Counted from the first letter of the stretch, positions 5,432-39,796 are shown. The stretch: 61,029 nucleotides of DNA from a virus (IMGVR_UViG_3300045257_000102:1-61029); one strand, 5' to 3'. Numbers and translations: made by a program. The notes: generated by a model not told the origin, from the letters alone.

Positions 5432-6082
5432 ATGAAACCGTATTACGAACATGCCGGGATAGTCATTTACCACGCGGATTGCCGCGAGGTGTTGCCGACA
5501 ATCCGGGTTGAGACGGTAATATTCGATCCTGTTTGGCCAAACACGAAAGTTGAGCTGCACGGATCAATAGACCCCTGGAAGAATCTTCGGAACGCTTTAG
5601 ATGCGCTCACAGAAACGACGACACGGATTGCAATCCATTTGGGATGCGACAGTGACCCGCGATTTCTCACGTCTGTTCCTGACCGGTGGGAATTCTTCGC
5701 AACAACATGGCTTGAATACACGAGGCCGCATTATCGCGGTCGCCTACTCTACAAGGCGGACGTGGCCTATCTCTTTGGCGAACCCCCACCATCGTCAGAC
5801 GGGAACCACGTTATTGGCGGCCGGCACTTAGATACTTCATCATGCGGTCGAGAATCGGATCATCCTTGCCCGCGAAAAATCCGTCATGTTCGCAAATTGG
5901 TTCACTGGTGGTCCGCAATGAACGACACAATTTGCGATCCCTTCATGGGGAGCGGAACAACTCTGGTCGCGGCCAAGATTCTCGGTCGAAAGGCAGTCGG
6001 CATTGAAATCGTCGAAGAGTACGCAGAAATGGCCGCACGTCGTCTCGACCAGGAAGTCCTCCAATTCACCCCAGAGCCGTGA
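5432..6082 (+). CDS. DNA N4-cytosine/N6-adenine methyltransferase (beta class)
   Basis: MKPYY...IYHADC, DPVW (DPPY-like), HPCPR, DPFMGSGTT, GIE. Confidence 0.9.
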   Translation: MKPYYEHAGIVIYHADCREVLPTIRVETVIFDPVWPNTKVELHGSIDPWKNLRNALDALTETTTRIAIHLGCDSDPRFLTSVPDRWEFFATTWLEYTRPHYRGRLLYKADVAYLFGEPPPSSDGNHVIGGRHLDTSSCGRESDHPCPRKIRHVRKLVHWWSAMNDTICDPFMGSGTTLVAAKILGRKAVGIEIVEEYAEMAARRLDQEVLQFTPEP

Positions 6083-8211: not shown

Positions 8212-8982
8212 GTGAGGGAGACGATGACCTTCGGGAGTTTGTTCGCGGGAATTGGCGGCTTCGATTTAGGTTTCGAGCGTGCGGGCATGACCTGCGCGTG
8301 GCAGGTGGAGATTGACGACTATGCAAGACGAGTGCTCGCAAAACACTGGCCCAACGTCCGACGATGGGATGACGTGCGAACCTTCCCGCCAGAGGGCGAC
8401 TGGGGAGTCGATCTCATCTGCGGAGGATTCCCCTGCCAAGACATTAGCTCACAAAACAGCTCCGGAGTCGGCCTCGATGGTGAGCGAAGCGGGTTATGGT
8501 TCGAGTTTGCAAAAATCATTCGCCTACTTCGACCGAGATTCGCAGTCGTGGAAAACGTCGCAGCGATCACTTTTCGAGGGCTTGGACGAGTTCTCAGCGA
8601 TCTTTCCGAAAGCGGGTACGATGCGGAATGGGACACTTTACCGGCGCAGGCGTTTGGCGCGCCGCACATCAGAGAAAGGCTTTTCATTGTGGCCCACCGC
8701 GCAGGCGACGGACGAGAAACGCATGAAGTTTTCGACCGCAGCGCATTTAAAGCAACAGGCACGAAACAGGAGAAACGGTCACGGTTCTGGCCCGGCAAGC
8801 AACAACATTGTTCTTCAGTTCCGAATCGAGTTAGATATGCTCCCGACAGCGAATTTCTACGAATGGCTCATGGGATACCCGATCAACTGGACCGCTATCG
8901 AGTCTGTGGAAACAGCGTCGTGCCCCAGATAGCCGAATGGATCGGTCGTAGAATCATGGAATCGGAGGAGCGACCATGCTGA
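8212..8982 (+). CDS. C5 cytosine DNA methyltransferase (alpha polypeptide)
   Basis: motif I FAGIGG, IV GFPCQ, VI ENV, VIII PHIRER, X GNSV. Confidence 0.93.
   Translation: MRETMTFGSLFAGIGGFDLGFERAGMTCAWQVEIDDYARRVLAKHWPNVRRWDDVRTFPPEGDWGVDLICGGFPCQDISSQNSSGVGLDGERSGLWFEFAKIIRLLRPRFAVVENVAAITFRGLGRVLSDLSESGYDAEWDTLPAQAFGAPHIRERLFIVAHRAGDGRETHEVFDRSAFKATGTKQEKRSRFWPGKQQHCSSVPNRVRYAPDSEFLRMAHGIPDQLDRYRVCGNSVVPQIAEWIGRRIMESEERPC
8312..8932 (+). CDS. nested out-of-frame beta polypeptide of the C5 MTase (M.EcoHK31I-like)
   Basis: 206-aa +1-frame ORF inside the MTase gene with WPT and EWLMGYPINWT (motif IX-like); start codon uncertain. Confidence 0.7.
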   Translation: MTTMQDECSQNTGPTSDDGMTCEPSRQRATGESISSAEDSPAKTLAHKTAPESASMVSEAGYGSSLQKSFAYFDRDSQSWKTSQRSLFEGLDEFSAIFPKAGTMRNGTLYRRRRLARRTSEKGFSLWPTAQATDEKRMKFSTAAHLKQQARNRRNGHGSGPASNNIVLQFRIELDMLPTANFYEWLMGYPINWTAIESVETASCPR

Positions 8983-9278
8983 GCGACGAGCGGATTGAGG
9001 AGATGAGAAGAGCTGCGGAGCGTGGACAGTCGTGCTTTCCGAAGGATTTCGTTGCGCACAAGCTCGGCGCGATGATCCTGGAACTCTTAGCCGAGCGGGA
9101 ACAGACCAAGCCACGCGAGGAACCCAAGCCATGACTCAGACAGGACGACCGAAGCGGCCACGGAATGGGTGACGCGATGTTTCAATTGTGCGGCCAACCT
9201 GCTAGAATTAAACGAACCGGCGCGAAGGCTGTTACCCTCCGGCCGGTTCTAATCACAACGAACCCTAGGAGGTCCGTC

Positions 9279-9848
9279 ATGACTAAGCGCTATTCTAGCG
9301 ACACGTTGCCCCTGCTCCCACCTGAACAGAATGGCATCGTTTTCAGGAACGTCGGTGGACATCCGGGCTATGCGGTCAGCAATACCGGAGAAGTCCTGAC
9401 ATGCCTTGCGACTTCGCGTCTTGGACGATTTGGTTTCAGAAATTACTGGAAGCCGATGCGAACGTACATTTCCCATGGGTACAAGTGCCTAAAGATAAGG
9501 GGAATGGAGCGGACTAATTGCGCCATACATCGTCTGGTGCTCGAAGCGTTTGTCGGCCCATGTCCGAATGGATTCGAGGCGTGTCACAACGATGGCGACC
9601 GCCAGAACAACCGCCTTGAGAACTTACGGTGGGATACTCGCTCTGGAAATCATTCGGACAAAGAGCAACACGGAACGATGTTGCGAGGCGCAAGACACCC
9701 TAATGCAAAAATCACCTGGGAGATCGTCAGCGAGATTCGTAGGCGATCATTGAATGGAGAATCTCTTCTAAGATTGGCCCGCGAATTCGGAATTAGCAGG
9801 AGCAATGTGGGTTTGATTGCGGCGAGAAAGACATGGAATAAAGAATGA
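9279..9848 (+). CDS. NUMOD4-HNH homing endonuclease
   Basis: GYAVSNTG, IHRLVLEAFVGP, ACHNDGDRQNNRLENLRW, C-terminal HTH. Confidence 0.92.
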   Translation: MTKRYSSDTLPLLPPEQNGIVFRNVGGHPGYAVSNTGEVLTCLATSRLGRFGFRNYWKPMRTYISHGYKCLKIRGMERTNCAIHRLVLEAFVGPCPNGFEACHNDGDRQNNRLENLRWDTRSGNHSDKEQHGTMLRGARHPNAKITWEIVSEIRRRSLNGESLLRLAREFGISRSNVGLIAARKTWNKE

Positions 9849-10273: not shown

Positions 10274-11968
10274 ATGACCCAGCCCGACAAGTCCGCAATC
10301 AACGAACTCAATGAACTCGTCGAGATGCTACCCTGGCTCAAAGATTTTCAACAGCACTGGCAGGCTGGCACGGCCATCACTGGCGATGGTGTTGTTTGTA
10401 AAGCCGAGCCACCCGCAGCCGAGCGGCAGGAGACCACATCGCATAAGCCTTGTAAGAGATGTGGGAACTGGATTTATGAGTCGCTGAACGAAGAAGGAAT
10501 TTGCCCAGCGTGCGAAAAGCAGCTCTCCGAGCGGCAGGAGCAGCCGGCGGTGCGAAAGATCGACGCGGTTATGGAAGCCGTGCATGGGATCACCGAGCCG
10601 CCCGCCGCGCCCCAGCCGCTCAGCGTCGAGGAGGCGCGCCAGCGCGGAGTGTGTCGGATATGCGGTCGAACAACCTTATATCTTTCGACTGGTGTTAATT
10701 TCGGGGAGCAGGCTCACGTCGCGTGTCTCGACCGCGAGCGAGCGGCAGCCGAGCCGAACTGTGCGGTAGCCTGTCAAGCAGCTAAGGCTGACGGCATAAT
10801 CTGTCCAGATGACTCGTGCGACATTGAGGACGGGGTGAGAGCGGCAGCCGAGCCGCAGAAGATAGTTTCTGTAGTCTTGCCAAATGCCGAGGCGCTTTGT
10901 GCTGCTGGGCAAAAGGTGATGCAAGAGATGGCAACCGAGCCGCCCAGCGAGGGCGAGACGAAGCAAGTCGTGAAACTCAGCACGATCATTGCTGAACTCA
11001 ATGAGGACGTTGAGGCCAGTAAGGCGATGCGCCGTGTGGGTGCGAAGCTGGGCTTAATGCTCAACGAATACTATCGACGTGCCGAGCAAGCCGAACGCCA
11101 GCGGGACGAGGCACGGCGACAACTCGCGGCGGAAAAGCGGCGCGGCGAACAAGAAGTAAGAGAAGCCCAGAACGCAGGCAACGGTCTGTATGCCGAAATT
11201 ATCAAACGACTCAAACCGCTATTGGGAGATAAGAGCCGAGATCTAGACTGGGACGTGTTGCCTTCGACAATTGGCGGATTGGCGAAAGAGAACGCCGAAC
11301 TCAAGCAGCAACTCGCGGCGGAACAACTCGGACCTATGGGTGTGCTGCACGGTAAGAACATATCAGGCTGGTGGGAAGAAGCCACGCGACTCCAGGCCGA
11401 CAACGAGCGGCTGCGTGAGCGGATCGAGGAGATGCACGAATCCAATGCGAAGGCGGCTAAATGGAATGAGCAAGCCGACGACGGTTATCGGCGAGAGATC
11501 GAGCGACTTCGTGCGGCTGTGGCGGCGAGAGATGCTGAATTGCGATTATTGCCGATGCCCGCCGACGAGCTTCGTGATGGGCATGTTCTGCATATCGACG
11601 CTGGCACGGTACGCCGCTGTAAGGCCGCGACCGCCGACGACGCGGGCGACGAGATCGCGGCCGAGTTGGAGCGGCTGCGGAAAGAGAACGAATGTTTCAA
11701 GGAAGGTCTCGAACCTGGCAAAGCCAACGCGATCATTAACGGGATGTTCGAGTTAGCGCACCGATACGGACACCCGCGACATTCGGCCCGGCACGCGCTG
11801 ATATTCCTCAAGCAACAAATGGCAGCCTCGAAGGAGCGGATCGAGGCGTTGACCGAAGGCGTGAAAGAGATTCGTCGGTATATGCTAGAACATTATGCAA
11901 CCGATCATCCATGTTTTGAGATCGCCGAGCGGCTGCTGGCCGCACCACAAACCAAGGAGAAGCCATGA
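10274..11968 (+). CDS. mosaic coiled-coil protein with several Cys modules (Ead/Ea22-like position)
   Basis: CxxC modules, long heptad stretches, internal short DNA repeats. Confidence 0.65.
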   Translation: MTQPDKSAINELNELVEMLPWLKDFQQHWQAGTAITGDGVVCKAEPPAAERQETTSHKPCKRCGNWIYESLNEEGICPACEKQLSERQEQPAVRKIDAVMEAVHGITEPPAAPQPLSVEEARQRGVCRICGRTTLYLSTGVNFGEQAHVACLDRERAAAEPNCAVACQAAKADGIICPDDSCDIEDGVRAAAEPQKIVSVVLPNAEALCAAGQKVMQEMATEPPSEGETKQVVKLSTIIAELNEDVEASKAMRRVGAKLGLMLNEYYRRAEQAERQRDEARRQLAAEKRRGEQEVREAQNAGNGLYAEIIKRLKPLLGDKSRDLDWDVLPSTIGGLAKENAELKQQLAAEQLGPMGVLHGKNISGWWEEATRLQADNERLRERIEEMHESNAKAAKWNEQADDGYRREIERLRAAVAARDAELRLLPMPADELRDGHVLHIDAGTVRRCKAATADDAGDEIAAELERLRKENECFKEGLEPGKANAIINGMFELAHRYGHPRHSARHALIFLKQQMAASKERIEALTEGVKEIRRYMLEHYATDHPCFEIAERLLAAPQTKEKP

Positions 11969-12120
11969 CGATACATGACATCGAGCCTATCATAGTTGCT
12001 CTCGTGATTTTCGATTCGGTTAAATGGCTTATGCGCAAGATAGACCGTTACGCACAAGCGGCAAGCATGAAAGCCGAGCGGCTGCTGGCCGACGCACAAC
12101 CGCAGGAGGAGAGGCCATGA
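11965..12120 (+). CDS. small single-TM protein
   Basis: MTIHDIEPIIVALVIF...AERLLADAQPQEERP; ATGA overlaps at both ends (translated by hand). Confidence 0.5.
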   Translation: MTIHDIEPIIVALVIFDSVKWLMRKIDRYAQAASMKAERLLADAQPQEERP

Positions 12121-12398
12121 AGGTGAGTGACGAACGGCTGGCGGAACTACAAAAGAAGTATGCGGCCCTAAATCCAGCACTTGACAGAGACTCTTACGGA
12201 ACAAGAGCGGATACTTGCATCGCGCTTGCGGAACTTCGCGAGCGCCGCGCCGCCGAGGCGAAGGACGCGAAGCTGCTTGCGGCAATCGTGTCAGCATATA
12301 AGAGCGCACGTAAAGAGTTTTGCGATGAGGAATCATGGGCGGCATTCTCAGATCAGTTGCAGCAAGCCGCCCGCGATGCTGGCGTCTCTCTCGACTGA
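12117..12398 (+). CDS. hypothetical protein
   Basis: ggaggag RBS; MKVSDERL start. Confidence 0.55.
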   Translation: MKVSDERLAELQKKYAALNPALDRDSYGTRADTCIALAELRERRAAEAKDAKLLAAIVSAYKSARKEFCDEESWAAFSDQLQQAARDAGVSLD

Positions 12399-12433
12399 CG
12401 AACACGCAAAGGACGGAAGGGACGCACGCACGG

Positions 12434-12649
12434 ATGCACCAAATCACAGCGACTTTCCGCCTTGGCGAGACGCGAGATGTCGAGATTGACGGGATTGCGC
12501 TGGCTGTGACGGTGTTTCACGGAAGGCGTGGGCAGGTGAAGATTATGCTGCGGTCCAAGGATGGGAGCCAGTTGCGGGTGATGAAGGCGAAGGCGTATCG
12601 ACCCCCGAATGACCGCGAAGATATTGACAAATCGAGCGGTGCGGCGTAG
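12434..12649 (+). CDS. divergent CsrA/RsmA-like RNA-binding protein
   Basis: RLGET..I...I..TV....GQVKI pattern; four ANGGA motifs immediately upstream. Confidence 0.5.
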   Translation: MHQITATFRLGETRDVEIDGIALAVTVFHGRRGQVKIMLRSKDGSQLRVMKAKAYRPPNDREDIDKSSGAA

Positions 12650-12652
12650 GTT
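12624..12652 (+). promoter_or_regulatory. sigma70-type promoter (candidate late promoter)
   Basis: TTGACA-17 nt-TAGGTT, overlapped by the hairpin ggttcaaggg/cccttgaacc. Confidence 0.65.
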
Positions 12653-12737
12653 CAAGGGCAGTCAGACATTCCCTTGAACCGATTTGCGAGTCACCATTTT
12701 TCTTAGAAGCGGGTAGGGGAAACCCGGACCCGCCAGG

Positions 12738-12806
12738 ACCAGTGAGAAACGGTTTCCAGTCGGTCTCATAAGCCGACCTCCGCAGGTTCGACTCCTGCCG
12801 CTGGCA
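12738..12806 (+). tRNA. tRNA-Met(CAT)-like with shortened D-arm
   Basis: acceptor accagtg/cgctggc, anticodon arm gtcggt-CTCATAA-gccgac, T-arm gcagg-TTCGACT-cctgc; no encoded CCA. Confidence 0.7.
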
Positions 12807-13013
12807 TTTGCGACCGATCCTAGGTTCCTGGCCTCTCATGGGGCTGGCGGTCGCAACCAACAACCTGAATCGGCGTTCTCTGCCGTCGCGGAAATCCGCG
12901 TTTAGAGTCGTTCCCTGACTCTGAGCGCGGATTTTCGAATTTTGAAATGGAGACAAAACAACCCGGTCGTTGAAGCGGCCGGGTCTAACCACGATTCCTG
13001 AGAAGGAGAAATC

Positions 13014-13532
13014 ATGGCTGCCGAGATTTTAACGGATGAATCGAATGCTGTCCAAGTTGAGCTTAGTCGCGGGATGTACGCAACAATCGACGCGGCCGAC
13101 CTGTCGATAGTCGAGCCGTACCGATGGATGACGATTGTGCACACGAGGGGGCGAAGGAGAAGTTTTTATGCTGGGTCGAATCTCGGAAAAGAAGGCATGT
13201 TGCTGATGCACCGACTAATCCTGTCGGCACCAGATGGCATGGAGATTGACCATCGAGATCACGACGGTCTCAACAATCGACGAACCAATTTAAGGCTGGC
13301 GACTCACGCACAAAATCTATTCAACAAAAGACCACAAAAAGGACGTGCTTCGTGGTTCAAAGGCGTAATGAGGAGCGAGAACGTAAATCGACCTTGGACA
13401 GCAATAATCACCCTGAATGGAAAACACCGCCGCCTCGGAACTCACCTGACCGAAGAAGAAGCTGCCGTGGCTTACGACGGAGCGGCTGCTGAATTGTTCG
13501 GCGAATTCGCATATCTGAACTTTCCAACCTAA
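13014..13532 (+). CDS. HNH-AP2 homing endonuclease
   Basis: MHRLI...IDHRDHDGLNNRRTNLR, FKGV, AAxAYDxAAxELFGEFAYLNF. Confidence 0.93.
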   Translation: MAAEILTDESNAVQVELSRGMYATIDAADLSIVEPYRWMTIVHTRGRRRSFYAGSNLGKEGMLLMHRLILSAPDGMEIDHRDHDGLNNRRTNLRLATHAQNLFNKRPQKGRASWFKGVMRSENVNRPWTAIITLNGKHRRLGTHLTEEEAAVAYDGAAAELFGEFAYLNFPT

Positions 13533-13557
13533 CACGTCTCGCACAGGAGAACCAAAG

Positions 13558-13920
13558 ATGACCTTGTTGCAAATCCTCCAAACTCTGCTCGCCAACATCG
13601 GCAAGGCCCCGGCAATCCTCGCATTCATTCAAGCCCTGATCGCGGCGTTCAACACCCTACTCGCCGCCTTGGGCCAGACGCCTCCGCCAGCCATCGCCCA
13701 CGCGGCCGGCTCGCCGGAAGCCCTAGCGATTGACCAGCTCGCCGCAGCTCTGAAATCGCACGGCACGGCCGAAGCGAAGGTGTTCGGCGACGGAACGATT
13801 CTCAAGACGCTGTTCGGGTTGTTTGGCGGTTTGCTCTCGAATCCTACTTTCGGCCCGATCATCGCGGGACTATTGCAAAAGCTGCTGGGCGGCTTCCTGA
13901 ATCCGGTTCCGACACCCTAA
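13558..13920 (+). CDS. amphipathic/hydrophobic helical protein (holin-like or membrane-active)
   Basis: Leu/Ile/Ala-rich helices, aggag RBS, first non-mobile gene after the promoter/tRNA. Confidence 0.55.
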   Translation: MTLLQILQTLLANIGKAPAILAFIQALIAAFNTLLAALGQTPPPAIAHAAGSPEALAIDQLAAALKSHGTAEAKVFGDGTILKTLFGLFGGLLSNPTFGPIIAGLLQKLLGGFLNPVPTP

Positions 13921-14253
13921 CCCTGGAGGTTGTGGTGGCACAAACCCCAGACGACATCTGGCAATCGCGAACCGACGAAGCGATTGCACAGCTTCAGGTT
14001 GACGTTGAGCTGCTCAAGCGGCAGATGGCCGAGATCATGGAAGCGCTACAAAAGCTCGCGGGAGGAAAGACGCCATGAAGATGAGCGAATTTGTTGAGGT
14101 TCTGAAGCATTACGCGCCGCCGTTCTCCACGGAAGATCCAGAACTTTATGCGGACGGCAAAGAGGTAATGAGCATCGCCGTGACTCAGGAAACGAAATCC
14201 GGCGCCCTGCAAATCGAGTTCAACACGAAGGCCGCCGAATAAATGGAGTTGCG

Positions 14254-15909
14254 ATGCCGCTCGATAAGACTCAGACGATTACCGTCTCGCTGTTTCTAAA
14301 GCCGATGACGCCAATCGCGCCGCCGGTCGCCGGCGCGCCGCCAATGGACGCGGAGACGTTCGCCGCTCAGCATTCTGCCGACCCAGCGGACATCGAGAAC
14401 ATCAAGCAAATGGCCGCTGCCAAGGGCCTTACCGTCGAAGGCGTTCATCCCGTCCAGCGGATCGTCAACGTCTCAGGCACGATCGACCAGCTCGAAGCGG
14501 CCTTTGGCGCCGAGGTCGAACAGCGCCCGACGCCCCAGGGTGAGCATCGCTTCCTCGCACGAGCAGCCGATCCGATGCCGCACTTGGGCATCGTGAAGAC
14601 GCTGGGATGGGAGTCGGCGCCGTTTGCGCAGCCGCACTTTCGCAGGCGACACAAGCACGCCGGAGCCGGTATCAGAGCCGAAGGGGTTGAACCGCACGCA
14701 ATGAAGCCGCTCGGGCCAGTCGCTACGGCTAAGCTCTACGGCGTCACGACGCGCCCCGCAGGAATCTACCGGACCTGTCACGGCTCGATCCTCTGTCTCG
14801 GCGGCGGCTATACGGCCAGCGATGTTGCCGCAAGCTGCCAGCTCAACGCAATCCCGGTTCCGACGATCATCGACGAATCTGTCCTCGGGGCCACCAATGC
14901 CCCTGGAAACGACGCCGATGTGGAGTTGATGCTGGACATCATCCAGCAGGCTGGGGCGTACTACGCACGCACAGGGAAGGCACAGACTATCCACGTCATT
15001 TTCACGCCGAATACCGACGCCGGTTATGTCGGCGGCTGCTCTTTCGCGGCTCACCTAGCAAACATGGCGGCCATGTCAACGTCGTGGGGGTCGCCAGAGA
15101 ACAACTGGTCCCAATCGGCCAGCACGTTTGATTCGACGGCCAAGGGCGCGGCCACGCTCGGCGTGACGTTTACTGCGGCAAGCGGCGATGGCGGTTCGAC
15201 AGACGGAACCGGCTCGAACGTCGTGGACTTCCCGGCGGCTTCGCCCTATGTGCTTGGCATGGGCGGAACGAACCTGAGCGATGTCGGCGAAGTCGTTTGG
15301 AACGATCCTGGCGGCGGGGCCGGCGGTGGCGGATTCTCACAAGTTGAGACTCCGCAGCCGCCTTGGCAGAGCGACTACCCGGCGACGGGCGGCCGCTGCG
15401 TACCGGACTTGGCGGCGAACTCGGCTCCGGCGACGTGCGGAACAATCGTCGTGCAGGGCCAGCACCTCGATATAGGCGGTACGTCTGCCGCTGCGCCTTG
15501 GATGGCCGGCATGATTTGCGCCCTGTCGGAAGAGTTGCCGCACAATATCGGCTATCTCAATCCGCTGCTAAAGATGATGCCGGCGACGTGCTTTGAGGAC
15601 ATCGTTCGCGGGGATAACGGCGGCTACAGCGCGAAGCCGGGTCCGGACCTGTGCACGGGCCGTGGATCTCCGCGACCGCTCGAGATGCTCAAGGCGCTCG
15701 GCGGGGCAATTGTAATTGATCCGCCTCCTCCTCCACCACCACCGCCGCCTCCCACCCTGACCGTCGCACAATTCCAAGCCAATCTCCGCGTGAGTGCCCG
15801 CAAGAAATACGCGGATGACTTGAAAAAAGAGAGTCGCATCGAGCATTGGACCAACGGCTATTACGCGCTCTTGACGGATAACATTATCGCTTCGGAGCCG
15901 ACCACGTGA
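14254..15909 (+). CDS. S53 family serine peptidase (sedolisin/kumamolisin) with pro-domain
   Basis: pro-domain, ELMLD (catalytic Glu/Asp), SWG, ASGDGG, PAASPYV, VPDLAAN, GGTSAAAP (catalytic Ser), Ca-site GPDLCTGRGSP, poly-Pro linker. Confidence 0.93.
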   Translation: MPLDKTQTITVSLFLKPMTPIAPPVAGAPPMDAETFAAQHSADPADIENIKQMAAAKGLTVEGVHPVQRIVNVSGTIDQLEAAFGAEVEQRPTPQGEHRFLARAADPMPHLGIVKTLGWESAPFAQPHFRRRHKHAGAGIRAEGVEPHAMKPLGPVATAKLYGVTTRPAGIYRTCHGSILCLGGGYTASDVAASCQLNAIPVPTIIDESVLGATNAPGNDADVELMLDIIQQAGAYYARTGKAQTIHVIFTPNTDAGYVGGCSFAAHLANMAAMSTSWGSPENNWSQSASTFDSTAKGAATLGVTFTAASGDGGSTDGTGSNVVDFPAASPYVLGMGGTNLSDVGEVVWNDPGGGAGGGGFSQVETPQPPWQSDYPATGGRCVPDLAANSAPATCGTIVVQGQHLDIGGTSAAAPWMAGMICALSEELPHNIGYLNPLLKMMPATCFEDIVRGDNGGYSAKPGPDLCTGRGSPRPLEMLKALGGAIVIDPPPPPPPPPPPTLTVAQFQANLRVSARKKYADDLKKESRIEHWTNGYYALLTDNIIASEPTT

Positions 15910-16010
15910 CTTGGGATTGGGCCAGCTTTGCAATCGGTCTTACGGCGGGAATCCTCTGCACTGTTGGAGCATATGTGATCGCGGCTTATCTCATTTTTGG
16001 CAGGGACTAG
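15906..16010 (+). CDS. single-TM micropeptide (34 aa)
   Basis: MTWDWASFAIGLTAGILCTVGAYVIAAYLIFGRD; GTGA overlap with the S53 stop. Confidence 0.6.
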   Translation: MTWDWASFAIGLTAGILCTVGAYVIAAYLIFGRD

Positions 16011-16017
16011 GTGACTC

Positions 16018-16338
16018 ATGGACCCTCTTGCTGCATTTTTTATCGGTGCTGTCCTTGGCGGTGTGCTGGCCTACGTGGCGGGAACTCTTCTCGCAAGCGA
16101 TTCGAGTAGCGAACTCAAGTCGGCTCAGGAGCGAATCCTCGACCTGGAAAAGCAGCGCGACGAACTCACAGCCGAGACTCAGCAGGCCCATGAGCTGATC
16201 GCTCAGGTTAAAGATGCTGCGTCGAAGGACCACGACATCGCGGCGAGCTCACAATCGGAAACAGCGCGGCTGCTGGCGAAGTACGAGCCGCCGAAACGCT
16301 CGCACCACAAAAGCAAGGAGCGTGGAGGCTCAGGCTGA
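16018..16338 (+). CDS. N-terminal TM + coiled-coil protein (inner-spanin-like topology)
   Basis: hydrophobic N-terminus followed by heptads. Confidence 0.6.
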   Translation: MDPLAAFFIGAVLGGVLAYVAGTLLASDSSSELKSAQERILDLEKQRDELTAETQQAHELIAQVKDAASKDHDIAASSQSETARLLAKYEPPKRSHHKSKERGGSG

Positions 16339-16457
16339 TGACTTGGGACTGGGCTACTTTTGCGATCGGTTGCGTGGTTGGGCCAGTTTTACTCCTATTC
16401 GTGTTTCCATTCCTATATGTCGTCTTGCTGGTTGTGATGGGTAAGGGAGACCAATGA
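16338..16457 (+). CDS. single-TM micropeptide (39 aa), paralog of 15906-16010
   Basis: MTWDWATFAIGCVVGPVLLLFVF...; TGATG coupling. Confidence 0.6.
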   Translation: MTWDWATFAIGCVVGPVLLLFVFPFLYVVLLVVMGKGDQ

Positions 16458-16567
16458 TGAGCGGGCATATCGGCGAACTAATCATGGACGTGGTTCTCTG
16501 GTCGCTGGCAGTCGGCTTGATTGCGTTTGTCGTGGTTTGCGCGGTGAGGGTGCTGGGGAGCGTTTAA
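16454..16567 (+). CDS. single-TM micropeptide (37 aa)
   Basis: MMSGHIGELIMDVVLWSLAVGLIAFVVVCAVRVLGSV; ATGA coupling. Confidence 0.5.
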   Translation: MMSGHIGELIMDVVLWSLAVGLIAFVVVCAVRVLGSV

Positions 16568-16569
16568 CC

Positions 16570-16770
16570 GTGAGTACGAACGACTACGGACCACCGCAAT
16601 GCGGCTACTGCGGAGCGTATCACGTCGGAATATGTCCTCGCATCGAAGAGATCGAAAGGTATCCAGACGGAACCGCAAAGCGAATTAAGTTCCGACCGCA
16701 GGGAAACGATGCTCAGACGATCGAATTCAACTTCTCGAAAGAATTTCATTCAGCGCCGTACTACGGTTGA
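16570..16770 (+). CDS. small conserved phage Zn-binding protein
   Basis: CGYCG..H...CPRI..IE.YPDG..KRIKF. Confidence 0.6.
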   Translation: MSTNDYGPPQCGYCGAYHVGICPRIEEIERYPDGTAKRIKFRPQGNDAQTIEFNFSKEFHSAPYYG

Positions 16771-16776
16771 ATTTCC

Positions 16777-17046
16777 GTGACCGACCCCGAAATAGAAGTC
16801 GAAGCGAAACGTCTACTGGCTCGCGGTATGACTCAGCGGGAAGTGGCGCGGCGATGCCATCTAGGGCGCGGAACTGTCCAGCGGATCGACCGAGGGGAAC
16901 CGTTGAAACAAGACGGACATACGACGAGGAACGGGGAGTTTGCACTCGTAGGAATTTGGCGTTGCCCATCATGTGGCGGCCGGATCAAAACTCGCAAATG
17001 TCTGGCGTGCGGAATTAGGAAGCCGCGAACGACGGTAGTTGTATGA
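16777..17046 (+). CDS. HTH + zinc-ribbon DNA-binding protein
   Basis: GMTQREVARRCHLGRGTVQRI; RCPSCG...CLAC. Confidence 0.75.
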   Translation: MTDPEIEVEAKRLLARGMTQREVARRCHLGRGTVQRIDRGEPLKQDGHTTRNGEFALVGIWRCPSCGGRIKTRKCLACGIRKPRTTVVV

Positions 17047-17170
17047 TGGGACCATTTGCCCTACTTGACTGGATCGTGCTGAAGCTGTGGCAGGCGATTA
17101 CGTTCCTGCCGCTCGTGTGGATGGCGGCGCATAAGCCGGGAGCGGAACAGTTCGGCGAGGATTTGAAGCG

Positions 17171-17440
17171 ATGAAGTTCCGAAAAAAACCAATCGTAGTC
17201 GAGGCCGAGCAATACTGCGGCCCGGAAACAATCTATATCGAGGCCGAGAAACCGGTGCTTCCGAGTGGTGTTGAATGGTCATTCTGCGGCGGTCAAGATT
17301 TTCGATTGTGGCCAGCCATCACCACACTTGAAGGCAAAATGATCGTCAGTCCGAATGATTGGGTAATTACTGGCGTCAAAGGCGAAGTCTATCCGTGTAA
17401 GCCGGATATTTTCGAGGCGACTTACGAAGCGGCCGAATGA
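17171..17440 (+). CDS. conserved phage protein (PGDYG-like)
   Basis: MKFRKKPIVVEA...DWVITGVKGEVYPCKPDIFEATYE. Confidence 0.85.
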   Translation: MKFRKKPIVVEAEQYCGPETIYIEAEKPVLPSGVEWSFCGGQDFRLWPAITTLEGKMIVSPNDWVITGVKGEVYPCKPDIFEATYEAAE

Positions 17441-18432
17441 AACTCGCCTACGAAACGCTCGAAAGCAGATTGATGCTCTCACACCACCACCATCACCCGC
17501 ACCCGCCGATTCCACAGCCGCCTCCGGTTGTGCCGCCGCCGATCGTCTCGCCGCCTGTGGTGCCGCCCGTGACGATTGGCGCTAAGCCCATGGGCTATCA
17601 GACGTTCTATCAAGCTGGAGCGGACGCGAACGCGGGATTGCATTCGACGCAGGCTTACTACAGGTACGATTGGAATACCGTTGAGAGTGCGCCGGGAGTA
17701 TTTCAATTCGGCGCGATGGATGCCGACTACAATGCGGCGGTTAAGGCTGGCCAGAAGTTCAACTTCCGCATAATGCCATTCGAGGATGGGAATACTGGCC
17801 CAATTGGGCTTGTCTCGCTCGGCGGAAACTGGGTCACTTTTCAAGGCGTTAAAACATGGCAGCCCGACCTCAATTTGTCCGCCGTACAAGCCGACCTGGA
17901 TTTGTTGCTGAAATCTCTTGGAAGCAGATACGCAACGCAAACGGCGACGGTAGACATCGGCTGGTGGGGACCGTACGGCGAGTGGTCGAATTACGGGATG
18001 CCCGCACCCCCACCGCTGCCGACAATCTCGACTATGAAGTGGCTTATTGGTGAAACGCAAAGGTATTTCCCTAATTCAATTGCGGTCACGCAAGCCGTGG
18101 TGGATTACGAATGGGGAACTACTGGCTATCTCAACGCAGCAATGGCTGCTGGATGCTGGCAGCGCATGGATAGTTGGGGCAAAGCCGACTCGTGGGACAT
18201 GCAGGCCGACAAAGCGGTCTTAAACGCCATGCAGCAGTCTCCGTACTGGACAAAGATTTGCACGATTGGCGAACCATTCGATACGAACTCATGGTCTGCG
18301 GCTGATTGGCAGTCGGCAGTCGCGTTCGCCAAGTCGGCCAGAATGGCTCTCTGGTCTACCAAGGGGAACGCAATCCCGCCCAGCGAAATGTCGCTGGTTG
18401 AGCAATTGATCGCGTTTGAGAAGACGTTATGA
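17437..18432 (+). CDS. exported clan GH-A-like glycoside hydrolase (DUF4832/GH42-like) with Planctomycete extracellular motif
   Basis: LAYETLESRLML N-terminus, His/Pro linker, YYRYDW..VE..PG.F.F, FRIMP, DIGWWGPYGEW. Confidence 0.75.
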   Translation: MKLAYETLESRLMLSHHHHHPHPPIPQPPPVVPPPIVSPPVVPPVTIGAKPMGYQTFYQAGADANAGLHSTQAYYRYDWNTVESAPGVFQFGAMDADYNAAVKAGQKFNFRIMPFEDGNTGPIGLVSLGGNWVTFQGVKTWQPDLNLSAVQADLDLLLKSLGSRYATQTATVDIGWWGPYGEWSNYGMPAPPPLPTISTMKWLIGETQRYFPNSIAVTQAVVDYEWGTTGYLNAAMAAGCWQRMDSWGKADSWDMQADKAVLNAMQQSPYWTKICTIGEPFDTNSWSAADWQSAVAFAKSARMALWSTKGNAIPPSEMSLVEQLIAFEKTL

Positions 18433-18863
18433 ACGGCTGCCCATTACATGGCGATGCGTGGTGTACGTGCAAGAAAGACCGCGATCCGACACCAGAAGAG
18501 ATTGCATTAGCCGGTGCGCGGCTCGCGGCGGCGATTCGGATTCTTGAGGGCTTTTCGGAAGACACGGAAGCTGACAGACAAAGACGGCTTGAACAGGCGC
18601 GGCTCGCCGACGATGCGCGTCATAGAGGGCCATTGCTATGACCAAGAAGTACAAATATTTCGTTGTTGAGGACATTCCAGAGGATGATTGCGTAATCTAT
18701 TCGGCTATGTCAATCCGAGAAGCAAAACGACTCCGGGTGAAATTAGCATATGAGGATCGCGATGGTCCGGCGCTTGGCATTACGAAATGGAATGGAACTA
18801 TCGAAGACTTTGAAAACCGCGCAGTATTGCGGGCGAAAAATCCAAAACCTATAGGAATCTGAT

Positions 18864-19118
18864 ATGCACTATCGAAACGGCCGCGAGGCCAAGAATGGCG
18901 ACAAAGTAGTTCAACTCATGGCTTGGGGTGAACCAATGATTACCGCAGTCGGTATTTTGCACGATGCGAAGCCCGGCAACGACCTTTGTAATGGCAGCAT
19001 CGCCCCGACGACTTCGGCCGGTGTCACCGGGGCTTGCCTGTGCGACTGCCTCCATGCTGACGACTTGGCGGCACTGCTCAAGGAAAAGGGACTCGATAAA
19101 CGGCCTGCTGGAAAGTAA
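18864..19118 (+). CDS. conserved phage hypothetical protein
   Basis: MHYRNGREAKNGDKVV...CNG...CDCLH. Confidence 0.7.
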   Translation: MHYRNGREAKNGDKVVQLMAWGEPMITAVGILHDAKPGNDLCNGSIAPTTSAGVTGACLCDCLHADDLAALLKEKGLDKRPAGK

Positions 19119-19178
19119 CGCCCCTGGTCGATCAACTGCTGGCGTTTGAGAAAACCCTGTAACGGAGGAGATTCACCG

Positions 19179-19862
19179 ATGAGAAACTTTGCCCTATTGC
19201 TGGTTGTCACGATGGCCTCGATGACGCTTATAGCGGCTGATGCGCCGCACGGCGGACAATCCACCATTCCGCCGCAAGGTCATGTTGTGCAACCCGGCCC
19301 AGCGGTCCATGCGCTTCCCGGTCCTGTCACGCCGGAGCAGCCACACCTAGCGCCGGCCGGACCACCCCATGTCGAACCGCACTTTCGCCCTGAATTATCC
19401 CGAGAATCGACACGCGAAGTCCCTCACAAGTCGAGTAGCGAAGTGATTCGGGAATCGAGTCGAGAATTCTCTCATTCCGCGATCCGACCGGGCGATATTG
19501 GCCGCGCTCGGATGCGCTGGGATGGCGCGCGTTGGTGGAATCTGTCCTTGGGCAATGCCTGGTCCTACTACGACGGAGCCGCTTGGGTTGCCTACCAGCC
19601 GGGAGTCGTTGAGTTTGCGCCGCCGCTTTTGGTTCAAGAGGATGCCGTTGAACAACCCGCAGTTGTCGAGCAAGCTCCGGCGATTGTGCAACCGCTGGTC
19701 GTGCCGCAAGGCTACCAGTATTACGACTCTCACTGGTGGTATCAATCGAACGGCGCATGGGTCGTTCACAACGGTAGTGCGTGGGTTGCGCCGCGAGCGT
19801 TCTATAGCGGCAGATCGTACTTTTACGAGCGGCCGGGCGTTCGTATTTCGATCGGGAGGTAG
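19179..19862 (+). CDS. secreted Pro/His-rich protein with two Trp/Tyr-rich modules
   Basis: signal peptide MRNFALLLVV..., ggaggag RBS, duplicated WW..W..W.. module. Confidence 0.7.
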   Translation: MRNFALLLVVTMASMTLIAADAPHGGQSTIPPQGHVVQPGPAVHALPGPVTPEQPHLAPAGPPHVEPHFRPELSRESTREVPHKSSSEVIRESSREFSHSAIRPGDIGRARMRWDGARWWNLSLGNAWSYYDGAAWVAYQPGVVEFAPPLLVQEDAVEQPAVVEQAPAIVQPLVVPQGYQYYDSHWWYQSNGAWVVHNGSAWVAPRAFYSGRSYFYERPGVRISIGR

Positions 19863-19866
19863 GGCT

Positions 19867-20946
19867 ATGAGCCATCGCATCTATCGAGCCATGAACGATG
19901 TGCTTTCGCTTCTGCTCATCTTTGCGCTGGCGTTCATGCTTGGCCTTGGACTCGCCACGTTCGTTCGTGGGCAGGAAGTCCAAACCGCCGACATTGACGC
20001 TAACCCGACGCCGGAGCAACTGGCGCTGGGCAACATGCTGATTCACGAGAAGCACTTAAGCACGACCGGCGAGAAGTCGTGCATCAGTTGTCACGATCCG
20101 GGCCGCGCCTTTACCGACGGTTTCGCGGCTTCAACCGGCGTCAATCGACAAGTCGGCACGCGAACGTCAATGACGATGGAGGACGCCGTATTCAAGCCGG
20201 ACATCTTTTGGGACGGCCGGGCAAGGTTCCTCGAAGGACAGGCTACGCAGCCGATCGTCGCCGCGAAGGAGATGGGCCAGCAGACGTTGCAACAGGCGTT
20301 CAATCGCATCGCCCAGAGCCAAGGCTACCAGGGGGCCTTCGAACGTGCTTTCGGCCGCGGCGTGAACGTCCAGGACGGCATCCGAGCTATCGCCATGATT
20401 GAACGCACGATTGTCCACGGCGAAGCGCCGATCGACCGCTACGAGAAAGGCGAACATTGGGTATTCAACGCGGAGCAGAATCGCGGCCGGGAAATCTTTT
20501 TCGGCAGCGGGAAATGCACGCAATGCCATTTCGGGCCGTCGCTCAGCGACCACGAATTCCACGTCGTACTCGGACGGACGCAAGATCGTAACGGCCAGCT
20601 TGACAGAGGCCGGGGAGCAATCACGAATCGCCGTGAAGACAATTTCAAGTTCGCGACACCTACCTTGCGGGACATCGGCAAGCGTGGGCCGTTCTTCCAT
20701 GCCGGGCAGGCACGCGACCTAGATGGCGTTGTGGACCTGCTCGATAACCCGCCGCAAGGGAGCGAACTGAGGCGGCTTAACTTGTCGGACGACGACAAAA
20801 AGGCGCTCGTCACGTTCCTTTCAACGGCGTTTGAGTCGTATGTGGCTCCGACGCTGGCGGAAGTCAGTTTGCCGAACGATTTTCCAGGAGAACAGAGACA
20901 AGCAAGGGGGCAGCAACGGAACCAGGGACAACGGAGGCAGCGATAA
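19867..20946 (+). CDS. di-heme cytochrome c peroxidase / MauG family protein
   Basis: signal/TM, CISCH and CTQCH, FWDGRA, EMG, TPTLR, PFFHAG. Confidence 0.93.
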   Translation: MSHRIYRAMNDVLSLLLIFALAFMLGLGLATFVRGQEVQTADIDANPTPEQLALGNMLIHEKHLSTTGEKSCISCHDPGRAFTDGFAASTGVNRQVGTRTSMTMEDAVFKPDIFWDGRARFLEGQATQPIVAAKEMGQQTLQQAFNRIAQSQGYQGAFERAFGRGVNVQDGIRAIAMIERTIVHGEAPIDRYEKGEHWVFNAEQNRGREIFFGSGKCTQCHFGPSLSDHEFHVVLGRTQDRNGQLDRGRGAITNRREDNFKFATPTLRDIGKRGPFFHAGQARDLDGVVDLLDNPPQGSELRRLNLSDDDKKALVTFLSTAFESYVAPTLAEVSLPNDFPGEQRQARGQQRNQGQRRQR

Positions 20947-22651: not shown

Positions 22652-22695
22652 TTAGAACACAGTAACCACACTGTAAATCATTGAAAGGAGTTTCT

Positions 22696-23340
22696 ATGTA
22701 CAAGCATGTTCTAGCGACGATCTTCGGTCGTCGCCATCACGGGGGCGGCCACTGCGGCGCTCTCATCGCAGCCGTCGCGATTCTGACGGCCGGCACGTCT
22801 GACGCTTGTAATTGCGGTAGCAAGGCAGCGGTTGCGGTCGCTCCAGCGGCTACGGCTGTTTGTGCCCATGCGGTCACGATGACCGTCGTGCAGCCGATGG
22901 TCGTTCAGAGGCTCGTGACCGTCATGCAGCCGATGTTCGTTCAGGCCTTTCAACCGGCGACTGTCGCCTGTGCGCCAGCGGTTGTGCAGCAACAGGCCGT
23001 AGTTCAACAGCAAGCGGTTGTCCAGGCTCCGGCCATTGCTCAGAGCGTCGTTGCTCCGCCGGAACCGCCTCAGTCCTTCACTGGCCCTCCGGCGGCGCCT
23101 ATGGCCGTCCAGGGCGTTCAGACGGAGGCGGTTGCGACTGAAGCCGTGGGATTGGCGACCGTCGAAGCTCGCAAGCTGGGATTCTTTGAGCGATTCCGTC
23201 TCGCTCGCGAGGAGCGAAAGGCGCTCAAGGAATCGGTCGTGCTGGTTCCGGCACAGCAGCAAGTTGCTGTAGTCCAGCAGCAAGCGGTTGTCAGCCAAGC
23301 CGTCACGGTCAGGAGCCGAATGCGGCTGCGTTGTTTGTAA
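22696..23340 (+). CDS. secreted low-complexity Val/Gln/Ala-rich protein
   Basis: signal-like N-terminus ending SDA/CNCG; VVQQQA repeats; aaggag RBS. Confidence 0.65.
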   Translation: MYKHVLATIFGRRHHGGGHCGALIAAVAILTAGTSDACNCGSKAAVAVAPAATAVCAHAVTMTVVQPMVVQRLVTVMQPMFVQAFQPATVACAPAVVQQQAVVQQQAVVQAPAIAQSVVAPPEPPQSFTGPPAAPMAVQGVQTEAVATEAVGLATVEARKLGFFERFRLAREERKALKESVVLVPAQQQVAVVQQQAVVSQAVTVRSRMRLRCL

Positions 23341-24507: not shown

Positions 24508-25026
24508 ATGGATGACAACCCCTCGCCACGAGTATCGTGCGGTCATACCGTCGGCACCCTCTTCGATTTAATGGATGAGCGCGAACGCTTCCAAATGGAG
24601 CGTATCGGAAAGCTGGAAGCGGTTGGAACCGAACGCGATTTGCGATACAAGGAGAAGTTCGACGCCCAAGAAAAAGCCGTCAAGATTTCCTTCGATTCGT
24701 CTGAAAAAGCTGTGCAGAAAGCCGAGGACGCCCAGAAGGAATACAACGTCCGAAGCAATGAATTCCGCTCCGCGTTGGACGACCAACAGAAAACATTGCT
24801 GACTCGGAACGAGGCTGACACGCGATTTACACAGATTCGTGAACTGGTCGATGCGCAAGGCGCGATGATTGGCACGATTCAGAATGTGCTTAGTCGGACG
24901 GAGGGAATAGCCAGGACAATAGATGGCGGCAAGGCAAATAACCTCGTTGTGTTTGCTCTGTTGGCGACTTTGGCTTTAGTAGTGATCGAAGGCGTGGGGT
25001 TGTTGTTTGTGATTTTGAGGCATTAG
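24508..25026 (+). CDS. coiled-coil protein with C-terminal TM (holin-accessory-like)
   Basis: AVQKAE.AQ...NEFR.AL.DQ, hydrophobic C-terminus. Confidence 0.65.
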   Translation: MDDNPSPRVSCGHTVGTLFDLMDERERFQMERIGKLEAVGTERDLRYKEKFDAQEKAVKISFDSSEKAVQKAEDAQKEYNVRSNEFRSALDDQQKTLLTRNEADTRFTQIRELVDAQGAMIGTIQNVLSRTEGIARTIDGGKANNLVVFALLATLALVVIEGVGLLFVILRH

Positions 25027-25039
25027 AAAGGCGGCGGTT

Positions 25040-25279
25040 ATGTTATTGCGTCGAGCATTATTCGGACTCATTTCCCTGTCTGGAGTCGTCCAGTTGATGG
25101 TCTATCTGATCGTTGCCGGGCTGATCTTCTGGCTGTTGTACTTCCTCGTGAATTACATCAACCCACCGGAACCGTTCAAGAAGATTGCGATGGTGATCCT
25201 CATGGTCTGTGCGGTTCTCATTTGCATCGGCGTGCTGCTGAGTTTCGCGGGCGTCAACGTCGTACAGTTTGGACCGTAG
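25040..25279 (+). CDS. two-TM membrane protein (Thivi_2564-like; holin candidate)
   Basis: LIVAGLIFWLL...PEPFKKIA..IL two-helix pattern. Confidence 0.7.
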   Translation: MLLRRALFGLISLSGVVQLMVYLIVAGLIFWLLYFLVNYINPPEPFKKIAMVILMVCAVLICIGVLLSFAGVNVVQFGP

Positions 25280-33400: not shown

Positions 33401-33901
33401 ATGATCGCCAAAGTAAACAATAATGGGCACGGTAAAAAGGCGGCTTTCCTCAAAGCGTATGCGCGTTGCGGCGTTATTACGCGAGCGGCAGTCATGGCGA
33501 AATGCGATCGCAATTCCCACTATCAATGGATGCGTGTCGATCCCGAATATCCAGCCCGATTCGAGCAAGCCCACAAAGAAGCCTGCGACGTACTCGTGGA
33601 AGAAGCTCGGCGCCGGGCCGTCGAGGGCTGTACGAAAACGATTTACTACCAGGGCAAGAAATGCGGGGCGATGAAGGAATTTAGCGATACGCTGCTGATC
33701 TTCCTAATGAAAGGCGCGATGCCGGAAACGTATCGCGAGCGGTTCGAGCATAGCGGCAGCGTCGATCACAATCTGACGGCTTCACCGGAAGTCATCGCGG
33801 CGGCCTCGGTCGCTCGATTGGAGTTATTGCAGGAGCGGAAACACCTGGCGAATGGTAGCAACGGCAACGGACATTCTGAGACAAACGGCCTCACCGGCTG
33901 A
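33401..33901 (+). CDS. terS: terminase small subunit
   Basis: KxAFL.AY...G.IT.AA, EARRRAVEG, SDTLLIFLMKG..PE.YRE. Confidence 0.88.
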   Translation: MIAKVNNNGHGKKAAFLKAYARCGVITRAAVMAKCDRNSHYQWMRVDPEYPARFEQAHKEACDVLVEEARRRAVEGCTKTIYYQGKKCGAMKEFSDTLLIFLMKGAMPETYRERFEHSGSVDHNLTASPEVIAAASVARLELLQERKHLANGSNGNGHSETNGLTG

Positions 33902-39213: not shown

Positions 39214-39796
39214 CTCTTCACGGATGGGATTCAATGATCCGCATGGCCGACAAGCATCACCCGCTCCGCAAGTTCCACAAGCAGCAGACGAAGCCGCGGC
39301 GGACGGCATTTAATCTGATTCGTTACTTCTGCATCAAGTGCGGAGAAAGAATGGTTGCGCAGAATAGCGCCCAGTCTCTTACCTCTTTCAAATGCTCGAA
39401 TCCGTTATGCGGGCGGACTAAGAAGTTGAGCCGCGGGGATAATCCAGAAGTCCTGATTTGATCGGCTTGCTCTCTACCCAAACGCGGATCGTCTCGGCGA
39501 ACCAGTTGGTGTTCATGCAACATAGGACTATCCACGAACGAGAGTCCGGCATTGAATGAGCTTCAATGCCCCAGTATTCACCTATCGCCGATCCGGGATG
39601 TACTGGAATTGCCTGCATGGCCTCATGAATAGCCAATGCTGAATCGCACTCGACAATAAACCGCCGAACGTCCGGCTCTGTGTAGTCGCTGCGATCAATT
39701 TCGTAGCATCGAATCATGGGCTCTATTCTAACCGCTCTTTCCAACGGTTGGAACTCTGTTATTCGCTAATTGCTTGCCGTGCCTTCTTTTAGAGGC

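Follow-up and report, generated by a model that had tools for sequence, protein, structure and literature searches.

A complete soil-phage genome (IMGVR_UViG_3300045257_000102; 61,029 bp with direct terminal repeats) codes, within a string of small genes at positions 13558-16567, for a 551-amino acid (aa) peptidase of the S53 (sedolisin) family. This whole genome is the stretch analyzed here and is called the window below, or G000 when set beside other genomes. The best reading of the sequence comparisons is that the phage S53 proteins are lysis-cassette enzymes, of which the window gene is a Planctomycete-phage version. More specifically, we give an even chance to the 551-aa protein being a lysis-associated accessory lytic protease, i.e., a phage-lineage sedolisin acting in the manner of a split endolysin's peptidase half or of a helper lysin of the LysB type. 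The gene stands fourth in a tight same-strand string of eight open reading frames (ORFs), centred on the complete S53 gene, several of which are predicted to carry transmembrane (TM) segments:

13558-13920, plus strand: 120-aa small helical or hydrophobic "partner" protein with a hydrophobic segment at residues 20-38, a Gly/Leu-rich amphipathic C-terminus and a Pro/Thr tail
13932-14078, plus strand: 48-aa predicted coiled-coil protein, preceded by a GGAGG site, with weak, sub-threshold family matches only
14075-14242, plus strand: 55-aa ORF, function unassigned, overlapping the stop codon of the 48-aa ORF
14254-15909, plus strand: 551-aa S53 peptidase of the pro-kumamolisin type
15906-16010, plus strand: 34-aa single-TM ORF whose GTG start overlaps the S53 stop (GTGA); a paralogue of the ORF at 16338-16457
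16018-16338, plus strand: 106-aa protein made up of an N-terminal TM segment, a coiled coil and a basic tail, an i-spanin-like or class-III-holin-like architecture
16338-16457, plus strand: 39-aa single-TM ORF, its start overlapping the stop of the 106-aa ORF
16454-16567, plus strand: 37-aa single-TM ORF, joined to the preceding one by an ATGA overlap

Shine-Dalgarno motifs of the GGAG type lie ahead of six of the eight starts (the first four genes and those at 16338 and 16454) and are weak or doubtful before 15906 and 16018, whereas the stop and start codons themselves overlap at 15906, 16338 and 16454. Hydropathy predicts one TM segment in each of the four ORFs downstream of S53, and across these four the start and stop codons overlap or nearly abut. 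An initial annotation of this DNA had listed here a membrane protein, a complete S53 protease with its pro-domain and lacking a signal peptide, and coupled TM proteins; this gene content is borne out by the present analysis, save that the 34-aa ORF had been overlooked. The late-type promoter that the same annotation placed ahead of the string found no support, as a sigma-70-type scan of 11900-19500 gave three sites against 3.7 +/- 1.8 in shuffled sequences, with none before 13558. A terminator scan likewise did not rise above the shuffles.

The S53 protein itself can be recognized with little ambiguity. A phmmer search of the Protein Data Bank (PDB) sequences aligned its residues 30-482 with pro-kumamolisin (1T1E; E = 3.7e-71), followed by kumamolisin-As (E = 5e-56), sedolisin (E = 8e-13) and TPP1 (E = 3e-8), and in Pfam it matched PF09286 (Pro-kuma_activ; 25.6 bits against a cut-off of 23.5) and, at the level of the clan, Peptidase_S8 (36.8 bits against 21.8). 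Residues E224, D228, D312 and S411 are intact, align with 1T1E and are invariant both in the alignment of homologues and in all 17 viral S53s examined; we take E224, D228 and S411 to be the counterparts of the kumamolisin triad E78, D82 and S278, and D312 that of the oxyanion aspartate D164. D449 and D465, presumably the calcium-site aspartates by way of kumamolisin numbering (D316 and D338), are kept in 16 of the 17. An AlphaFold model built on an alignment of 27 rows reached a mean predicted local distance difference test (pLDDT) score of 85.5 and resolves the protein into three parts:

14254-14652, plus strand: pro-domain (residues 1-133), a pro-kumamolisin activation domain (PF09286; the 1T1E pro-region), modelled at pLDDT of about 90 or more
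14701-15708, plus strand: catalytic domain (residues ~150-485) with E224, D228, D312, S411, D449 and D465
15709-15906, plus strand: poly-proline linker (residues ~489-500) and a two-helix C-terminal module (helices 504-525 and 535-547)

Disordered stretches follow the pro-domain (135-149) and occupy the proline linker (489-498), and the C-terminal module is modelled at pLDDT 50-70. By sequence and predicted fold, this is an intact protease of the zymogen type. Hydropathy found no hydrophobic N-terminal segment in it; the missing signal peptide is to be regarded as a family trait rather than as evidence for dependence on a holin, since kumamolisin also lacks one.

What sets the protein apart from its cellular relatives is its C-terminal end, as the proline linker and the C-terminal module are not present in the aligned bacterial homologues. 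A Pro-rich linker with a tail of 40 aa or more is found in all seven members of the window's clade and in seven of the eight viral S53s of a second group (group II), whereas a tail of that length of any kind occurs in only 12 of 114 bacterial S53 matches. An arrangement of enzyme, Pro-linker and small C-terminal module is, by analogy, the layout of modular endolysins. No known wall-binding domain was recognized in the module: the ESM Atlas returned no usable match for the tail, and BLAST of S53 tails against all ORFs of the loci returned proline runs and other S53 tails only.

The S53 genes closest to that of the window form a phage lineage well separated from the bacterial enzymes. Among the best 120 of 675 homologues, six (the query included) are 53-100% identical over their whole length and all carry the proline linker and C-terminal extension; the next best reaches 39% over about 87% of the length, and 39% is also the best identity of any bacterial S53 match in that set. 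A clade of seven is monophyletic with a support of 100 in both the FastTree (74 rows) and the IQ-TREE (46 rows) trees, in which a long branch leads to it; two pattern scans covering 185,579 species genomes yielded no confirmed member. The long branch and the distance from bacteria suggest that this is not a recently captured host gene. Besides the window, three members come with DNA context, answering a call of the initial annotation for a look at related phages: G001 (= L002; 51,177 bp with terminal repeats, S53 78% identical), G002 (= L003; 65,768 bp with terminal repeats, S53 61% identical) and the 10.7-kb metagenome contig L014 (S53 60% identical).

The three complete genomes have little else in common. 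Thirteen proteins are common to G000 and G001, headed by S53 at 78% and followed by the 120-aa partner at 70% and a 363-aa beta-helix-like protein at 69%; only four are common to G000 and G002 (S53 61%) and four to G001 and G002 (S53 60%). Thus, S53 is the best-conserved protein among the three, even as the large terminase of the window has no match in G001 or G002 and its capsid protein has one in G001 only, at 28%. That S53 tops conservation in otherwise unrelated phages points to a conserved cassette that moves between them, and lysis and host-recognition functions are those that typically travel between unrelated phages in this manner. A terminase-based search for close relatives that lack S53 returned one 21.8-kb fragment, which does not span the S53 region. 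Two other window products show high identity to proteins of these genomes, namely the 363-aa protein, which has a signal peptide (32307-33398; the 69% match in G001), and a 306-aa protein (44649-45569; 60% identical to a G002 protein); both are probably host-recognition or depolymerase modules exchanged in the way S53 is.

The link to lysis comes chiefly from group II, i.e., eight IMG/VR loci (L005, L007-L013) that group with a Shimodaira-Hasegawa (SH) support of 97 in FastTree and 90 in IQ-TREE. Most of their S53s lack the pro-domain, and seven of the eight carry the proline linker with a tail of 40-70 aa. In L008, a gene beginning 2 bp after S53 fuses an Amidase_2 domain (E = 1.9e-11) to an r1t-holin domain (E = 1.5e-22) and is followed by a 42-aa ORF with two TM segments. 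In L009, S53 and the start of an Amidase_2 lysin overlap, and 1.3 kb downstream comes a holin (phrog_565, E = 1e-23). Further members show looser versions of such neighborhoods: GH25 genes (27.1 and 78 bits) 0.9-1.0 kb upstream of S53 in L010 and L011; the order endolysin (phrog_17214, E = 1e-21), two-TM ORF, S53 in L005; an r1t-holin-like ORF (BLASTP E = 1e-11) 0.66 kb upstream in L012; and a sub-threshold SLT/GH19-like ORF 1 kb downstream in L007. The lysis gene of L008 (10993-12102) is in itself an unusual form, a single Amidase_2/r1t-type-holin fusion directly after an S53 without pro-domain, and a sortase-like protein (by eye) is encoded two ORFs before that S53 (8619-9389).

A wider survey, in which a group-II profile gathered 61 IMG/VR viral loci and homologues of seven seed lysis proteins were sought by local phmmer or iterated hmmsearch, placed a seed-homologous lysis gene at most 1 kb from S53 in 15 of the 61 loci (13 of 54 without seven near-duplicates) and at most 5 kb away in 18 of the 61. 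Single-pass BLASTP confirmed ten new lysis ORFs, those of L075 and L129_6171 matching over just 42-58 residues. In L074, L080 and L085 the S53 gene stands in translational coupling with endolysin genes, 0-13 bp apart, and in L005, L008, L085 and L129 it is embedded among lysis genes and not tail genes. The density of small TM ORFs at most 1.5 kb from S53 (34 in 158 kb) is 1.8 times that of the outer flank (41 in 336 kb). A scan for PG_binding_1 in 43 S53-bearing virus records was uninformative, with two matches, one of them 2.3 kb from S53.

Within the window's own clade, the neighbors of S53 are in part conserved. Immediately before S53, L002 and L014 code for homologues of the 120-aa protein (70% and 34% identity, respectively), L003 has in this place an analogous ORF of about 110 aa that shares the amphipathic C-terminus and Pro/Thr tail, and L013 has a weaker look-alike there. 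The hydrophobic N-terminal segment of the window protein is not kept in L014 or L003, which makes a conserved transmembrane holin doubtful. The 120-aa protein matches nothing in Pfam, PHROGs or NCBIfam, its family counts only seven members among 5.8 billion proteins, and its ESM Atlas scores of only 0.82 are under the level of a lead; the predicted complex of S53 with it scored 0.08, which gives no verdict and is evidence neither way. Inspection, as distinct from statistics, also found small helical or coiled-coil ORFs directly before S53 in L006, L008, L010, L012 and L013. On the downstream side, L002 has a TM and coiled-coil gene, 52% identical to the 106-aa protein, along with two tiny TM ORFs; thus, membrane-protein genes adjoin S53 in two of the three clade genomes (the window and L002). 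As to the remaining small ORFs of the window, the 55-aa ORF has no family match in Pfam or PHROGs, and the 34-, 39- and 37-aa TM ORFs have none in PHROGs; the 106-aa protein has weak ones only (the Rz-like spanin family phrog_214 at E = 0.018, and YtxH below its cut-off). Translations of 15.9-17.2 kb, read by eye and with no dedicated predictor, contained no lipobox-bearing ORF.

These observations may be brought together in a model in which the enzyme, encoded amid small membrane proteins as a zymogen that retains its pro-domain intact and lacks a signal peptide, would build up in the cytoplasm late in infection and would cross the inner membrane via lesions made either by the neighboring membrane proteins or by those of a second cluster at 24.5-25.3 kb. 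Its pro-domain would then be shed and the protease would cut protein or peptide parts of the envelope, with surface-layer proteins, peptide bridges or proteins that anchor the wall as candidates, thereby aiding the release of progeny. The C-terminal two-helix module might steer the enzyme to the envelope, and the upstream 120-aa and 48-aa proteins might be helpers, be it as chaperone, inhibitor or membrane factor.

The second cluster comprises the following:

24508-25279, plus strand: second membrane-gene cluster, an alternative holin/spanin candidate without a family match
24508-25026, plus strand: 172-aa coiled-coil protein with a C-terminal TM segment
25040-25279, plus strand: 79-aa protein with 2-3 TM segments and a holin-like look

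Several points weigh against S53 being part of a lysis cassette, and the second cluster is one of them. It has a positional counterpart in L002/G001 (18305-19066, within a cluster spanning 17462-19221) and may be the real holin/spanin set, being an equally good candidate for it; in L003, similar-looking small TM and TM plus coiled-coil ORFs occupy 17166-19563, their positional equivalence to the window cluster not being established. The small membrane ORFs beside S53, five of them with predicted TM segments, match no holin or spanin family in Pfam or PHROGs, and in L003/G002 the genes right after S53 code for soluble proteins, the nearest membrane ORFs being more than 0.7 kb off and in another unit. 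The evidence for a lysis cassette derives from group II and not from the window's own clade: the best IQ-TREE tree puts both on one side of a branch, but this join has an SH approximate likelihood ratio test (SH-aLRT) value of a weak 72 and involves long branches. The adjacencies in group II are also not fully independent, since the lysin of L103 is 94% identical to that of L011, and the 61-locus survey used seven seeds and no random-gene control, so that the chance expectation of ~3-10% is a rough calculation that assumes a gene placed at random in a phage genome of 30-140 kb. Moreover, the S53 genes of L009, L012 and L013 border tail or connector genes as well, which leaves a virion role conceivable there, and that of L005 is the last gene before a repressor and an integrase, a classical moron position. 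On the biochemical side, known sedolisins are acid-activated, and the model leaves unexplained how this would come about in a periplasm. The case as a whole is, finally, one of sequence comparison and prediction.

Whether the S53 protein could be the sole lytic enzyme depends on the search for a conventional endolysin, which the initial annotation had been unable to recognize. Scans of 71 window ORFs against Pfam and/or PHROGs (many against one library only, and with ~20 small ORFs outside the scan) detected no lysozyme, amidase, M15 or M23 protein, no ORF of 13014-18432 belongs to a peptidoglycan-hydrolase family in Pfam or PHROGs, and NCBIfam added nothing for ten window ORFs. Scanned in six frames at E up to 1, the window gave no match to Phage_lysozyme, Amidase_2, SLT, Peptidase_M15_4 or Peptidase_M23. 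The same five families together with Amidase_3 and GH108, scanned against G000-G002, gave a single signal, M23 at 13 bits in a G002 ORF of 660 aa (the GH108 scan gave no signal in any control genome), and six endolysin seeds from other S53 loci, run by local phmmer against all G000-G002 ORFs, found nothing better than E = 0.6. The earlier statement thus holds within the 71 ORFs and the six-frame scans of five families. These negatives can be given little weight, because the six-frame search missed the Amidase_2 domain of G007 (L008) that hmmscan scored at 44.9 bits; the absence of an endolysin from the window genome rests weakly on negatives of hidden Markov models that are demonstrably leaky, a further point against reading S53 as its replacement.

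One further enzyme was considered as a hidden endolysin and rejected:

17437-18432, plus strand: 331-aa protein with a LEPR-XLL-type N-terminus, a His/Pro-rich linker and a TIM-barrel, glycoside-hydrolase-like domain

This protein and S53 are the only clear hydrolase-like products of the 13.5-26 kb block. Its model (pLDDT 76) is closest by Foldseek and VIA-align to the beta-amylase of GH14 (Z = 19.2, root-mean-square deviation 3.6 over 271 residues), followed by barrels of clan GH-A at Z of about 15, and genome comparison found no counterpart in G001 or G002; on account of this fold and of its not being common to these phages it is not taken as a lysin, though it may cleave glycans. A scan of genome contigs for the family gave no confirmed relative. 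Nineteen homologues, at most 70% identical, were nonetheless found, some of them on bacterial contigs of 198-998 kb and one named LEPR-XLL, and by such comparisons the protein looks like a recently host-derived exported hydrolase. Two of its relatives, at 42-43% identity, belong to metagenome-assembled genomes labelled Pirellulales; they are the sole basis for the tentative Planctomycete host that the initial annotation assumed.

In its stronger form, the proposal would make the sedolisin the principal lytic enzyme of these (probably Planctomycete) phages, with no muralytic endolysin and with a self-activating protease, set free by membrane lesions, dismantling an envelope that depends on protein, and would make S53 an unrecognized lysin class across dozens of uncultivated lineages. 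This we hold to be improbable. The earlier suggestion had been that the protease might replace or supplement a muralytic enzyme: supplementation is favored by the relatives, in which S53 adjoins Amidase_2 or GH25 lysins, and replacement finds no support in them, since there S53 appears by sequence to accompany the muralytic enzymes.

The place of the S53 string in the genome, nearly all of whose genes lie on the plus strand, bears on the competing explanations:

1-12 kb: replication and DNA-modification genes, with a PD-(D/E)XK nuclease, AAA_24, N6/N4 and C5 methylases and an HNH endonuclease
12738-12806: tRNA-Met
13014-13532: HNH-AP2 endonuclease, sitting between tRNA-Met and the S53 module
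13558-16567, plus strand: S53 gene string of eight ORFs
16.5-26.6 kb: block of mostly unknown genes, including the LEPR-XLL/TIM-barrel protein and a di-haem cytochrome c peroxidase
27-33 kb: tail-fibre-like genes
33852-35255: large terminase
35507-37324: portal
~38-55 kb: head and tail genes
37948-39213 (phrog_595/115), 39770-41059 (a PHROG of unknown function only) and 41896-43113 (phrog_133): morphogenesis or protease-like candidates of the head module

The explanation that survives best beside that of a lytic accessory is that S53 is an exported accessory protease, i.e., a "moron" or host-interaction enzyme dispensable for lysis and carried on a host-specific cassette travelling between phages; such an enzyme may destroy receptors on debris, block superinfection, digest a matrix or holdfast, or release nutrients. 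It would account for the location of S53 at the head of a ~13-kb block (13.5-26 kb) with exported host-like proteins (the LEPR-XLL TIM-barrel protein and the cytochrome c peroxidase) and several others with signal peptides or TM segments, for the sharing of the cassette by phages with unrelated structural modules and for the lack of membrane genes beside S53 in G002. It is also in keeping with the L005 gene at its prophage end and with L004 and L006, whose S53s nest among bacterial sequences and have no lysis neighbors. A sporadic recent capture, which the initial annotation had named as the alternative that would undo its proposal, does not fit the window's clade, since this is far from bacteria (at most 39% identity) and strongly conserved between phages (53-91%). 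The coupling of relatives to endolysin genes in L074, L080 and L085 likewise runs counter to a role apart from lysis, and the enzyme lacks a signal peptide though export would be needed. The two roles overlap, as an enzyme released by lysis could do both jobs, and as a separate explanation this one appears unlikely, if far from negligible.

A role in entry, with S53 as a tail or ejection protein of the virion breaking down a surface layer made of protein on the way to the receptor or membrane, seems very improbable for the window enzyme. The exchanged tail-fibre-like or beta-helix proteins at 32307-33398 and 44649-45569 do show the same pattern as S53, the S53 genes of L009 and L012 come after minor-tail or tail-spike genes, and that of L013 stands before a tape-measure-like gene and a 138-aa ORF that by eye is a possible connector, with no match in Pfam or PHROGs. 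Against this, the window S53 lies outside the 27-55 kb structural block, with ~11 kb between it and the first tail-fibre-like gene downstream and 18 kb between it and the terminase; its neighbors are tiny membrane proteins, it keeps a full zymogen pro-domain, and the relatives in L005, L008, L085 and L129 keep company with lysis genes instead. That S53, as an endopeptidase, might process phage proteins, e.g., in the head or tail maturation for which phages commonly have proteases, is scarcely credible: the head module has candidates of its own at least 20 kb away, known prohead proteases belong to our knowledge to families other than S53—position and family together speaking against that role—and neither the linker-plus-module layout nor the lysis neighbors of the relatives fit it.

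The accessory lytic protease proposed here may be set beside several known systems. With kumamolisin and its precursor (MEROPS S53; PDB 1T1E and 1GT9) it has in common the homologous pro- and catalytic domains, the Glu-Asp-Ser triad, the oxyanion and calcium-site aspartates and the lack of a classical signal peptide; it differs in being phage-encoded, at most 39% identical to the bacterial members, furnished with a poly-Pro linker and two-helix module and set among membrane genes. A second parallel is offered by the modular endolysins and the split "lysin A" of actinobacteriophages, which have the same order of enzyme, linker and module and whose type of neighborhood recurs where group-II S53s abut or overlap Amidase_2 or GH25 genes near holins. 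The peptidase domains described in endolysins are of the M15, M23, CHAP, NlpC/P60 and C39-like types, whereas S53 is a serine-carboxyl peptidase of subtilisin-like fold without a recognized cell-wall-binding domain.

Mycobacteriophage LysB, a cutinase-like esterase (alpha/beta hydrolase) acting on mycolyl-arabinogalactan, is a functional analogy only, as a second cassette enzyme directed against a non-glycan envelope component; the window enzyme is a protease and the host envelope a different one. The lambda-type holin-endolysin-spanin cassette resembles the window string in having small overlapping membrane genes flanking an enzyme without signal peptide, with the 106-aa protein in the place of an i-spanin-like product; unlike it, the window has no detected muralytic enzyme, lipoprotein o-spanin or holin/spanin family match, and its terminase is 18 kb away. 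The PeiP and PeiW pseudomurein endoisopeptidases of methanogen viruses are protease-type lysins for an unusual wall chemistry, and differ from S53 in belonging to an unrelated cysteine-peptidase-like family, in their archaeal hosts and in having a defined isopeptide target.

The known lysis enzymes of phages are glycosidases, amidases, metallo- or cysteine-type peptidoglycan peptidases and the LysB esterase, and we know of no report of a serine-carboxyl protease in phage lysis. What would probably be new, then, is a lysis cassette or modular lysin with the S53 catalytic class. A tblastn search of 50,697 deposited phage genomes with the window S53 and one group-II S53 found none, and nothing relevant on S53 or sedolisins in phages or phage lysis was found in the papers searched. 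The main text of two surveys of endolysin diversity (PMC5968864, PMC12103483) has no S53, sedolisin or subtilase, though their supplements could list such domains.

Some other features of the genome are worth recording in their own right. Three HNH homing-type endonuclease genes (9165-9848, 13014-13532 and 55274-55942) are present, along with three DNA methyltransferase genes of the C5 (8212-8982), N6/N4 (5432-6082) and MT-A70 (58465-59526) types, and the latter suggest heavy anti-restriction modification. The di-haem cytochrome c peroxidase (CCP_MauG, E = 1.4e-38; 19498-20946) is a possible auxiliary gene, and other CxxCH-containing proteins are encoded in the same general region of L002, L003 and L013. 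Beside these cytochrome-c-like genes lie genes for secreted-looking proteins of low complexity, rich in Gln, Val and Ala (window 22681-23340; L002 16121-16603; L003 17486-17929; L013 9037-9348).

If the accessory lytic role of the phage S53 proteins is true, sedolisins would add a new class of enzyme to phage lysis cassettes, with a comparative footing beyond the single window in the form of at least 13 distinct viral loci in which S53 lies at most 1 kb from lysis genes. This would be relevant to the way in which phages breach the envelopes of Planctomycetes and of some high-G+C bacteria, and the lineage would constitute a new source of enzymes that target wall or surface proteins.

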